This document shows positions 1 to 3,900 of a DNA stretch of 60,000 bases, piece by piece. The position numbers were made by a program, and so were the translations under genes. The notes below the pieces were generated by a model. It did not search any database and had not been told where the DNA came from. It saw only the letters and a program-made list of their open reading frames with translations. Each line of letters opens with the position of its first letter. Positions within the stretch are counted from its first letter, which is position 1. Origin of the DNA: Botryllus schlosseri (Eukaryota); contig CM119372.1 in NCBI GenBank assembly GCA_051294905.1, positions 6,636,001-6,696,000 of the forward strand, written 5' to 3'.

Positions 1-415
1 AAAAGCGATGAGGCATATCGGAATCGCAACGCAGCAAGAGGGAATCAAAATGGTAGGAATGCATCTTGCCGTTATGTATAAACCGGAAATGCTTTCAAAT
101 AACTTGGTTCCTTTGCAGCATTTCTATCAAACACAAATCAGGATCGGCTATATCGATTGAGGAGGTATTCCGAGGGTACCGCAACGAGTCTGGACTCAAT
201 CAACAGAGACAGCGTTGCAGCCGATCGTTTAAGACAATCACTTACTGGGTAAGTTTTCGCCAAAGGGAGCATTTTTCAGCTTCTTCCGAATCACCACAGC
301 GAATCAGCTTTCCCCGCAATCATTTGGCAGAAGATGGTCTTCCACACGCAACCCTTCCTATTTACCCGGGCTTGAAACCGGCACTGGTTTTAGTGACCAA
401 CGAATGGATTCTTGA
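1..415 (+). CDS. 5'-partial glucagon/secretin/PACAP-superfamily peptide precursor (gene A); exons <1-52, 119-248, 331-415; ...KSDEAYRNRNAARGNQNAFLSNTNQDRLYRLRR|YSEGTATSLDSINRDSVAADRLRQSLT|GRWSSTRNPSYLPGLETGTGFSDQRMDS*
   Basis: Splice sites AATG|GTAGGA (52/53), CTTTGCAG|CA (118/119), GG|GTAAGT (248/249) and TTTGGCAG|A (330/331) give consistent phases (1, then 2). A furin-type RLRR site precedes a 27-aa peptide (166-246) beginning YSEGTxTS and followed by G-R (amidation/monobasic site). The last acceptor is the least certain. Confidence 0.8.
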
Positions 416-472
416 GGGAAGGCCATCGGGATGTAAGACCTCTGATTTGCTGAACCACAGATGTAACCATTA

Positions 473-993
473 AAGGGGTAGGGCACTCTAAAAATGATGT
501 GGTCTCAAATTGAAGAGCAAAACGAAAAAGAATTTGGCCGCAGCCGTTTTCTTCAGAACGCCACCATAATGGAACTGCAATTTATTAAAATTTCCACAGC
601 AACTTCACGCTATAGCAGTCACGCAGAGATCAAACTTTATATATTTGTCAGCCGATGTTATGAAGCAAATATGTCGTACACGCGCTATTTCCCAAAGAAA
701 TAGAATGCACTAGGCCCGATTTTGACATAAATCTCCTGACTCAACATCTTCCGTTGAACGCGGTATCTAAACCACCTTGGCGTGTACGACATATTTCCTT
801 CATAACATCGGCTGACAACTATATAAAGTTCGATCTCTGCGTGACTGCTGGAGCGTGAAGTTGCTGTGGAAATTTCAATAAATTCCAGCTCCATTACGGT
901 GGCGTTCTGAAGAAAATGGCTGCATCCAAAAACGAAAATTTCGTTTCGCCCTTCAATTTGAGACCACATCATTTTTAGAGTGCAGTGCCCCTT
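473..993. mobile_element. Palindromic MITE with ~200-bp inverted arms
   Basis: GCACTCTAAAAATGATGTGGTCTCAAATTGAAG... (483 onward) is mirrored by ...CTTCAATTTGAGACCACATCATTTTTAGAGTGC (ending 983). This explains the two near-identical opposite-strand ORFs 494-703 and 685-972. Confidence 0.9.
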
Positions 994-3900
994 AGCTTTA
1001 GTTTTAGGTAGTATTTAATAAATGACTACTACCTATATCAAAATGTTCAATGCATTCTAAATGGGGTTGGGGTGCTAGGTGATATGTTCGAGGTGTGAAA
1101 TCCAACTAACATGAGATTTTCCTGAACCGAAACAAATGGCCATGATAAACCTACTATTCTACTCCCGCTAAATGTGATTCAAATGTACCGATGGGCGATG
1201 GTATCGCTACTAATACAGCATTTCAAATTGAATTACCTTTTTTACAGACCAGCCACAGGCGGCTTGATCGATAAGCAATGTCTCATGGAATATCTTCCTA
1301 CAATTGTCTCCGACTACACGTTTAATTATGCAATTTCGATATGTACACTTTGAGTAATCACATTCCCGAATATCAGCATTCATACACTGCCGCCTATATA
1401 CTGTGTCGTTTATAATTTATTTATCTGCATACTTCAAATATATTTGTCTACGTGATCAACAAGACTGATCAATGTTCAATGCTCATCGTAGATAAGGCCG
1501 TTTCCTTCGTGATCAAAATCACGAAATTTTATATCGCGGGCAATCCGGTATACAATGGTTTAGAAATGGGCACACGTATGGTTTGATATAGGCAATCACC
1601 AGAAAACGTTCCTATGATATCAGTTTGAGTATCTTGCCACGACGCCAGGCGACAGAGGGCAAAACACGGAATGCGATTAGAAAGTGTCGAAATATAGTGC
1701 CCGAGACATCACAAGATATATTGACGTACCTACAAACAAATTCCTCGCTGTTCAATGTCACAACTTTTACCAAAATATAAATACAAGAGAACAGTGAACA
1801 TGAATACACATGGCACATATGTACGAATGATACATTTGAACCCGTATCCACCATGCAGGATGCAGCACTACTATGGCGCACAAAAGCATCCATGAATTTT
1901 ACTTTGACTAGAGTCTATTGTTTGAGATTTGTCATCATAATAATACTGATTTGGATGCTATATTTTACCTAATATTTCAATACTGATAATTCTAACTGGC
2001 GTATATGTATCGCATATGCTATCATATACATATACATCTCCGAATGAAAGGCATTCTGTTGAGTTCGTGATGGTTCATCCATTCATCAGACGCTCGTTCC
2101 GAAAATGGTTAGGGAAAACTCGCAAGACTTGTAACTTAATAGCCCGCGTTTCTCAGCCGACGGGATCAACATGATAAAAAAATAGTCTACCCATTTCATT
2201 TCTCGATTTGAAGGAAGTTGTATTGTAATTTGATGTGAGAAGGTTTTTGTCAGTCACAAACTTACGCACAAGAACACAGCATTTTCAAGAAGCTTACCAC
2301 ATTAAAATTTGACTTGGATGAGTAACCTGCGCAAGTTCACAATGGACATACAAACGATGTTTCTTAGTATATATAAGGCTCACAAGCAACGATAAAATAT
2401 GATGTATGCAGCGATTTCACCAAGATGACGTTGGCTTATTTGTCAGTAAGTGCGAATGTTGCGACATTTCACTCCGAATTCACTTTATACCGCCCGGCCT
2501 GGACCATAGGCCTACACTAGAAAAAGTGAAACATTGTCACCATACGTCAGCATCGCACACCACAGAACAAAAAGTTAAAACACGGACACAAAAGGTTGTT
2601 AAAATCGCATCGAAATAAAAATGACGGCTGAATTTTGTGAAGTGGCGGGGAAGAGATTTTTCACAGTCATTGTCGTAGTTTTCGCTACGAAACATATGCG
2701 ATGAATACAACACTTCGTTATTACTTATATACCATGAAGAATTCAAAGGAAATAAAACCCCCATTGATCCTCACTGCCTTTTCGTTGGTAATTAATGTAA
2801 AAGCAATATCACGTGACACGTAGCCCCTCATAAAGAGTTGATGATGGAAATATACGTACGCCTATTGGAGGATTAGGAATCGTTCATATCACTGTGATCA
2901 ATTGTCAATTCGATTACTATGACCGCATGTAGATTTATCAGCAAAGGAGTTTAAAATCAATATACTGAAAATTGAAGCAGATGTTTGCAATTGTCCACAG
3001 ATTATAAGTATAAATCGTTAATGCAACACAACGATTTACTGTAGCAACCCTGCTCTTTCTGGGTGTAATGTCAAGCTAATTCGATTTGTAAACTACCGGG
3101 AGAAATCATGAACCACCAAAACTTTGAACGACGCCAGCATGGCTCCCTGCATGGACGTTGGACAAATATTACGCCATAGTGGCGAAAGGTTATTACACAA
3201 TTTCGGTAAACACAACCCCGTATGGCAAGCCCCTTGAAGAAAACTGGCGTGTACTCGGCCGGACCTATAGTCGATCCTGTGTTCCTGGCATATGATGCAA
3301 TCCTAATTTCGAATTACATTGGAAATGATGAGTCTATAGAGTGTCTGTATATTGAAAACAGTTTAACATCGTGTCACATCTTCGTCGGCTTTATCTGCAC
3401 GTGTTAAAGAGGAGTTGGTTACGCTAATTCGACCCACGCGATGGAAACACCATGAAATTCACGCAAGGTCATTCTAATTATAGTATATGAAATAAAACAT
3501 TCATTGTAAAATTTACGATCTCCACCAGCACCAGAGCTAGAACAACGGAATTCAGTTAAAAATATTTTCTCGAAGAGAAATATATATACAATTCGTTGCT
3601 AACAAATGACAACAAAACGGCTCTAAAAACACGCCCTCTGGAATCAACGCGTGGACGTGTTACTATATAGATTCTCGATGTAAGGTGAAATGGCGTTAAA
3701 GAGGCGGTAACATGTATAGATATTATTTGGCAGCAACATGTTGTTACTTGTGCTTTTCCATGTCACTGAAAGGGGCGAAAAGTTTTCAAATATACATATT
3801 GCTATGCAATTACGTATTTATTATTTACCGAAGAAATGATATTAGACGTGATTAGAATATTAGAGTATAAACTGTATATTCTTGATCCATTTTATTTATT

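Follow-up and report, generated by a model that had tools for sequence, protein, structure and literature searches.

An expressed four-exon gene of the tunicate Botryllus schlosseri encodes a probable distant relative of the secretin/glucagon hormones

Gene structure and expression

We analysed a stretch of the Botryllus schlosseri genome 60,000 nucleotides long (C2:6636001-6696000 in the 495-Mb assembly), referred to throughout as the window, and also examined the 20 kb upstream of it. Across the left edge of the window lies a gene of four exons and three introns, all of them GT..AG, which keeps one frame from ATG to stop. Its parts are given here, with coordinates counted in the window unless L001 or L002 is named.

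L002 9696 (about 300 bases upstream of the window), + strand: TATA box TATAAAAG, from sequence
About 30 bases beyond the TATA box, + strand: initiator-like TCATTT, from sequence
About L002 9730 (L001 1230), + strand: transcript start; five template-switch-oligo-tagged reads of RNA run X19 end at the predicted initiator
L002 9785, + strand: ATG, opening the frame that starts MAKLSLGSTVNIATIGILVFYLSTAES
1..52, + strand: 3′ part of exon 2 (exon start 55 bases upstream, L002 9946), propeptide spacer; joints in runs X1, X12 and X19
53..118, + strand: intron 2, 66 nt, phase 1; joint L001 1552/1619, in three of four runs
119..248, + strand: exon 3, (A)FLSNTNQDRLY-RLRR-27-mer-G(ly); boundaries from RNA joints
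154..165, + strand: RLRR, the sole R-x-[KR]-R or dibasic site in either protein form
166..246, + strand: 27-residue peptide YSEGTATSLDSINRDSVAADRLRQSLT, precursor residues 85-111
247..249, + strand: Gly codon, candidate amide donor; gg plus g when unspliced, gg plus the a of 1248 when spliced
250..252, + strand: TAA stop of isoform B (extended exon 3), from an X12 contig; precursor ends ...SLTG
249..1247, + strand: intron 3, 999 nt, phase 2; joint L001 1748/2748, in an X1 contig and 17 X19 reads
469..474, + strand: ATTAAA, candidate poly(A) signal of isoform B, from sequence; the X12 contig ends at 472
473..993, no strand assigned: MITE-like inverted-repeat element within intron 3, outside the coding gene; arms of 55 nt (91%) and 151 nt (92%)
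1248..1464, + strand: exon 4 of isoform A, CDS at 1248-1353 and then 3′ UTR; a 647-nt X1 contig ends at 1464

The leader before the ATG at L002 9785 contains no upstream ATG. The first residues of the frame are basic, and a hydrophobic core of 11 residues (Kyte-Doolittle maximum 2.5) and the small-x-small residues S-T-A follow, with a cleavage-type motif that places the cut between S-T-A and E-S; judged by hydropathy and the -3/-1 rule, exon 1 encodes a predicted signal peptide. The initial annotation of this DNA had staked its reading on a signal-peptide exon upstream of the window, and the ATG with its hydrophobic N-terminus and S-T-A was found there. In the reads of X19 the G run of the start codon carried a one-base deletion in 4 of 23 cases.

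RNA evidence came from four runs, taken as Logan contigs for X1, X11 and X12 and as raw RNA-seq reads for X19; X11 yielded low-depth unspliced contigs only and is uninformative on splicing. The joint between exons 1 and 2, which removes a 63-nt GT..AG intron, appeared in X1, in X12 and in 15 reads of X19. The GT..AG junction at 52/119, which the initial annotation had predicted, was borne out by an X1 contig, an X12 contig and eight raw X19 reads. The 248/331 junction predicted along with it occurred in none of the four runs; instead, the donor at 248 is either spliced to position 1248 or read through. Between the AG at 117-118 and the GTAAGT at 249-254, the + strand in frame 1 reads ...AFLSNTNQDRLY-RLRR-YSEGTATSLDSINRDSVAADRLRQSLT-G, so the earlier reading RLYRLRR-YSEGTATSLDSINRDSVAADRLRQSLT-G is what the sequence gives, at 145-249 (+): RLRR is there, the peptide is 27 residues long, and Gly follows at its end. 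The Arg that had been placed after this Gly is not there: because the donor at 248 joins 1248 or stays unspliced, the next residue is Pro in the spliced form and a stop in the unspliced form. Exon 119-248 is thus an expressed exon, and its reading frame is confirmed.

Variation among the runs showed the precursor frame to be under purifying selection. Eight positions of the 441-nt CDS varied, and seven of these variants were synonymous; the sole nonsynonymous one changed Asn61 to Ile, in the spacer, and no variant fell inside the 27-mer in any of the four runs. With about one quarter of random changes being synonymous, at least seven synonymous variants out of eight would be expected with P of about 4e-4.

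Two mRNA forms

Exon 3 alone holds one peptide together with both of its processing signals, RLRR and Gly, and the transcript continues from there in two ways. In isoform A, intron 3 is removed. The resulting protein has 146 residues: signal peptide, 59-residue spacer, RLRR, the 27-mer, Gly, and then PATGGLIDKQCLMEYLPTIVSDYTFNYAISICTL. The coding part of exon 4 encodes (G)PATGGLIDKQCLMEYLPTIVSDYTFNYAISICTL-stop, which contains two Cys and no basic pair, so that isoform A adds 34 residues after the Gly, beginning with Pro, with no basic site among them. The second form was seen in X12, where a 428-nt contig (contig 16) is spliced at 52/119 and then runs unspliced from exon 3 to window 472 at a depth equal to that of exon 3. 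Because of this unspliced run, and because exon 4 has no coverage in X12, we conclude that X12 contains an mRNA with an extended exon 3, in which the first part of intron 3 is kept as 3′ UTR. The 3′ end of isoform B is not visible in X12 because the repeat begins at 473; copies of this MITE-like element in other places raise the contig depth over it into the thousands.

The protein of isoform B is 112 residues long, its last residues being ...RQSLTG, with the retained GTAAGT supplying a TAA directly after the Gly codon and leaving Gly as the last residue. The Gly-stop arrangement is not in itself a sign of design, since it is automatic for any phase-2 intron with this donor. An amidation-ready C-terminus (...SLTG-stop) would be present only in the unspliced isoform. 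The genome has 16 matches to the Cu2_monooxygen family, 14 of them over the cut-off, a count for the family as a whole rather than for PAM. Glyco_hydro_6 also exceeded its cut-off twice in the genome, one of the two matches having a Cellulose_synt match 3.3 kb upstream on the same strand; among animals, only tunicates are known to have a cellulose synthase with a GH6 domain. This pair agrees with a tunicate genome and speaks against an insect gene, perhaps for a CRF-like diuretic hormone, which had been considered at first.

Resemblance to the secretin/glucagon superfamily

To compare the 27-mer with the superfamily we fixed the alignment register by the RLRR cleavage site, the only such site in the precursor. 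In this register the residues that follow RLRR, Y-S-E-G-T-A-T-S, fit the N-terminal signature [HY]-[SA]-[DEQ]-G-[TIV]-F-T-[SD] at seven of eight positions. Against the GCG-subfamily consensus, for which we used the 15 positions with named variants in PMC2880984, eight positions match (Y1, S2, G4, T5, S8, S11, A19 and L26). Only 9 of 1,000,000 shuffles of the 27-mer reached 8/15, although this very likeness is what singled the candidate out, so that the implied P-value is post hoc.

We also asked how often such a start occurs in the 495-Mb genome. The motif RR-[HY][SA][DE]G[TIVAM]xT[S..] matched once, in exon 3, against no match for a reversed-pattern control, whereas the same DNA motif without the RR gave one genome match against four control matches, which puts the bare N-terminal motif at chance level genome-wide. 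What is above chance is where the motif lies: it is in frame and directly follows the sole RxRR of a secreted precursor that is expressed and under selection. A scan with the canonical motif carrying F6 gave four matches against two for the control; all four were non-genic judging by their context, none of them following a basic site, and they ran into stops or unrelated sequence.

The amphioxus peptides (Supplementary Table S4 of PMC9049855) provide a second comparison. Counted by eye, in the register that places the amphioxus I, F or V at position 6, PACAP/GCGa shares 9 of 27 residues with the Botryllus peptide (T7, S8, S11, A19, R21, L22, Q24, S25 and L26), GCGb shares 6 of 27 and GCGc 4 of 27. 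The binomial tail for 9/27 is 5e-4 (composition-matched p = 0.092), before allowing for the three peptides and a few registers. Because position 6 is I, F or V in the amphioxus peptides, Phe6 is not universal in invertebrate chordates; Ala is not reported at this position in the amphioxus members.

Embedding searches of the ESM Atlas pointed the same way. For the 44-residue exon, the nearest named clusters were three of PF00123 (0.81, 0.81 and 0.80); for its 28-residue part, ranked against all clusters, PF00123 took ranks 1 to 3 (0.84, 0.82 and 0.82) and the first other family came at rank 9. Atlas scores below 0.9 are leads only, as shuffled sequences often reach that level for some cluster and a short query may favour short clusters. 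AF2, run on the single sequence, predicted a helix over peptide residues 9-27 (25-43 in exon numbering) at a mean pLDDT of 80; this modelled helix lends weak support to the relationship.

Two other class B1 ligand types were considered and set aside. For a PTH/PTHrP-type ligand and for one of the CRF/DH44 type (CRF-like diuretic hormone), there was no Pfam family at E<=10, and comparison by eye aligned only an S-E dipeptide with the former and a loose LRQ-L with the latter. The Atlas neighbours are likewise Hormone_2 and not the PTH/PTHrP or CRF/DH44 families.

Searches that failed to place the peptide in the family

Profile and sequence searches did not return the family. With hmmscan, exon 3 matched no Pfam family at E<=10, and neither did the exon formerly proposed at 331. 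When the whole genome was searched with PF00123 (Hormone_2; curated cut-off 21.2 bits), 26 candidates were scored and none passed the cut-off; exon 3 was not among the matches, and the three weak matches at E<=10, all elsewhere, reached at most 16.5 bits. A phmmer search with the 27-mer against 177,635 PDB sequences, family hormones included, gave no match at E<=10, and one with exon 3 against 1.84 billion proteins gave only two, both translated tandem repeats. When longer proteins were searched with exon 3 by word index, 28 candidates came up and none scored, while 598 pattern matches in metagenome contigs included no relative. Queries with exons 3 and 4 matched only themselves in the Botryllus genome, leaving no paralogue, and no orthologue of the precursor was found in the protein word-index, 1.84-billion-protein phmmer or metagenome-contig searches. 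Word-index searches with two receptor exons of the same genome also found nothing, which suggests that this collection covers the clade poorly.

The residues themselves depart from the family at well-conserved places. Four consensus residues are replaced (F6 by A, D9 by L, F22 by L and W25 by S), so that Ala stands where the aromatic Phe is expected, and the helical hydrophobic moment of the 27-mer is not above that of shuffled sequences, a fraction of 0.23 of which reach it. The neighbourhood offers no synteny clue, because no Pfam family matched any of the 149 ORFs that reach 75 aa in the window or in the 20 kb upstream. We do not file the precursor as a member of PF00123, because the profile gave no match and Phe6 is absent. 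What held up of the initial description of the peptide as GIP/glucagon-like is its position-wise likeness, to the superfamily in general rather than to GIP in particular; Pfam, the phmmer search of PDB and position 6 all went the other way.

Candidate receptors

Among ten matches of the genome to HRM-domain exons, seven are of the hormone-receptor type with a C-W-P motif. These seven B1-type loci (three on C3, three on C6 and one on C15) are all followed by 7tm_2 exons on the same strand, and the three on C6 stand in tandem, each with HRM and 7tm_2 exons. In one C6 gene, the exon for TM5-7 best matches the glucagon receptor (1.7e-19), followed by GLP1R, GIPR and GLP2R, with PTH1R (1.3e-11) well behind; the TM2-3 exon of that gene best matches the secretin receptor (1.2e-12). 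At another C6 locus, a short extracellular-domain exon best matches PTH1R (6e-6), and in one C3 gene the TM2-3 exon best matches PTH2R/PTH1R (7.7e-19). These assignments are best matches of single exons and not a phylogeny. They agree with the account of GCGR-subfamily homologues in Ciona (PMC7251081).

Discussion

We interpret the gene as a probable distant relative of the secretin/glucagon superfamily and the missing tunicate ligand of that superfamily, and would give this reading a probability of about 0.6. The R-x-[KR]-R pattern is a site of the proprotein-convertase type. In the scheme that we propose, the signal peptide would be removed first and the precursor secreted, and a convertase would then cut at RLRR to free a peptide starting YSEGTATS..., the first 27 residues of which would be a divergent secretin/glucagon (PACAP/GCG) relative. 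In isoform B, cleavage would leave the Gly at the C-terminus, where its conversion would yield an amidated peptide of 27 residues, with a calculated monoisotopic mass of 2924.459 and [M+3H]3+ of 975.827; isoform A would yield a 61-residue product whose 34-residue tail, with its two Cys, may form a disulfide loop. The targets would be class B1 GPCRs, the best candidates being the three tandem glucagon-receptor-like genes on C6.

The precursor shares its build with vertebrate glucagon, GLP-1, GLP-2, GIP and secretin/PACAP-27/PHI: a signal peptide, a spacer and a convertase site just before position 1, in the layout of one peptide per exon that is common to the vertebrate family. Secretin and PHI are 27-residue amides. 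The Botryllus peptide likewise has 27 residues and then Gly, as does PACAP-27, described as a 27-residue amide in PMC7251081. Its matches to the vertebrate subfamily consensus include Y1 of the GIP type and S2 of the glucagon type (PMC2880984), and T7 is shared with the F6-T7 motif of PACAP-like peptides. Unlike the vertebrate hormones, however, it has Ala in place of the nearly invariant Phe6 and is without D9, L14, K20, F22, V23 and W25; it falls below the Pfam threshold, its Gly is followed by a stop or Pro rather than by basic residues, and its long isoform carries a tail with two Cys. Ala6 suggests an altered activation chemistry, as the initial annotation held. To the precursor logic of the family, Ala6 and the isoform switch at Gly would add two new features.

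The closest parallel lies in amphioxus, whose PACAP/GCG peptides a, b and c (Mirabeau and Joly, 2013; On et al., 2015, cited in PMC7251081 and PMC9049855) also come from an invertebrate-chordate gene of four exons, with peptides on their own exons, alternative transcripts and low identity to the vertebrate hormones. The amphioxus peptides differ in being 31-32 residues long and starting xLGDQ[SG], whereas the Botryllus peptide starts YSEGT, in the vertebrate manner; the amphioxus gene encodes three peptides and the Botryllus gene one; and only the amphioxus peptides have a demonstrated receptor. According to a 2024 paper, amphioxus holds the sole invertebrate member of the glucagon-like superfamily (PMC11661445).

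For tunicates, the question of a secretin/glucagon-type hormone has been open since the PACAP cDNAs pacap1 and pacap2 of Chelyosoma productum were reported (McRory and Sherwood, 1997, as described in PMC7251081 and PMC2880984). The peptides that these cDNAs encode, likewise claimed as tunicate members of the superfamily, are 85-96% identical to human PACAP; according to both reviews, the cDNAs were never refound in any tunicate genome or transcriptome, and both reviews call them unconfirmed (PMC7251081, PMC2880984). The Botryllus gene differs from them in being genome-mapped, spliced, polymorphic and highly divergent. Our literature searches listed no tunicate secretin-type ligand beyond the contested Chelyosoma/Halocynthia cDNAs, and the exact 27-mer string had no occurrence in the literature searched.

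The alternative with most in its favour is that the gene encodes a lineage-specific secreted prohormone or signalling peptide that does not descend from the secretin/glucagon line, with the N-terminal likeness due to chance or convergence. The failure of every family sequence search, the loss of Phe6, Asp9 and Trp25, the chance frequency of the bare motif (one match against four in the control), the lack of a paralogue or orthologue in the searches made, and the fact that the candidate was picked by eye for its likeness, which makes the shuffle P-value post hoc, are all what this alternative would lead one to expect. We nonetheless regard it as somewhat unlikely, because the register was set by the sole RLRR and the peptide then matched 8 of 15 consensus positions, a score reached by 9 of 1e6 shuffles, and because the match to amphioxus PACAP/GCGa over positions 19-26 is additional likeness that the initial annotation had not used. 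In addition, Hormone_2 supplied the nearest Atlas neighbours among 7.7 million clusters, and the same genome holds glucagon-receptor-like genes without a known ligand (PMC7251081).

It is improbable that the product is a small secreted protein with no hormone processing (structural, tunic, immune or reproductive, for example), in which RLRR stays uncleaved and the Gly is irrelevant. Such a protein would fit the main spliced isoform, which has a Cys-containing tail of 34 residues and no basic site after the Gly, and would fit the lack of a Pfam domain anywhere in the protein; against it stand the strength of R-x-R-R as a convertase site, a precursor size and layout typical of prohormones (a signal peptide, then a spacer, a single site and the helical 27-mer, which has an exon to itself) and an isoform that ends exactly at the Gly. 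That the locus does not code for a protein, being a non-coding transcript or a chance ORF, is scarcely credible, despite the shortness of the ORF and its absence from the protein collections searched, because the frame stays intact across three canonical introns, from the ATG that opens the signal peptide to the stop, and seven of eight variants are synonymous in it.

Returning to the gene as a distant relative of the superfamily, we offer a fuller version of this reading more tentatively. Tunicates have class B1 receptors that resemble the glucagon receptor, and the peptide could be their endogenous ligand and its gene the first genome-anchored urochordate hormone gene of the superfamily, forming a bridge between amphioxus PACAP/GCG and the vertebrate hormones and marked by Ala6, at a position that is otherwise aromatic or aliphatic, and by a splicing/polyadenylation switch. 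Depending on this switch, the product may be either the amide of 27 residues (Gly-stop) or the form of 61 residues, whose tail could hold a disulfide. Ciona has two homologues of the GCGR subfamily with no identified ligand, according to PMC7251081, and a precursor that is mapped, spliced and under selection provides a concrete ligand candidate for the three tandem genes of this kind in the Botryllus genome. The precursor sequence can also serve as a query in other tunicates. Tunicates are the closest living relatives of vertebrates, and if the relationship is confirmed, the hormone system would already have existed when the two lineages parted, and Phe6 would be dispensable in a natural member of the superfamily.

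Candidate receptors for the peptide

At least seven class B1-type loci were recognised in the 495-Mb assembly (G000); they lie in three genomic regions, two of them with tandem arrays:

C6:5.33–5.66 Mb (stretches L010, L013, L015 and L027), three class B1 receptor genes in tandem, an HRM exon followed by 7tm_2 exons
C3:9.57–9.72 Mb (L009, L012, L018 and L028), three PTH1R/PTH2R-like receptor genes in tandem
C15:11.62 Mb, a B1-type HRM exon with a 7tm_2 exon nearby

The three C6 genes are candidates for the receptors of the glucagon/secretin-like peptide. In the one C6 gene of the three that we tested, the exon encoding TM5–7 had the glucagon receptor as its best match, and the exon encoding TM2–3 had the secretin receptor. 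The C15 locus, judged by eye, looks CRF-receptor-like.

The hormone-like gene and its surroundings

The hormone-like gene lies in surroundings without recognisable neighbours: a Pfam comparison of the 149 open frames of 75 amino acids or longer in window 1–60000 and the 20 kb upstream (L002 and L003) gave no match at E ≤ 0.001. Upstream of the window, in the start-codon region (L001 1287), 4 of 23 raw reads from the RNA-seq run X19 had a single-base deletion in the Gs of ATGG. This is due either to sequencing error or to a frameshift allele that is rare.

Within intron 3 we found one element:

Window 473–993 (521 bp), a MITE-like element whose inverted arms are nested, with lengths of 55 nt (91%) and 151 nt (92%)

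This element begins directly at the sequence ATTAAA (469–474), and it may provide the unspliced isoform with its 3′ end or interfere with that end. In transcriptome runs, contig depths over it reached the thousands because of copies elsewhere.

Other gene clusters

Two further clusters were noted in the genome:

C9:15.025–15.069 Mb (L024–L026), two GH6-domain matches 43 kb apart
C2:36.84–37.00 Mb, five Cu2_monooxygen-domain matches over ~165 kb, on one strand

A cellulose-synthase match lies 3.3 kb upstream of one of the C9 GH6 matches, on the same strand, and the region may hold two cellulose synthase genes in tandem. The C2 matches, one of which contains two internal stops, suggest a tandemly expanded copper monooxygenase gene, which may be PAM, DBH-like or of another kind.

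Repeat translations that mimic homology

Searching 1.84 billion proteins with exon 3 returned only two matches (P0001 and P0002). Both are long translated tandem DNA repeats, over which several weak matches were summed, and one repeats RLRRHSEG. Homology of a short peptide can thus be mimicked by repeat-derived open frames in a protein library.
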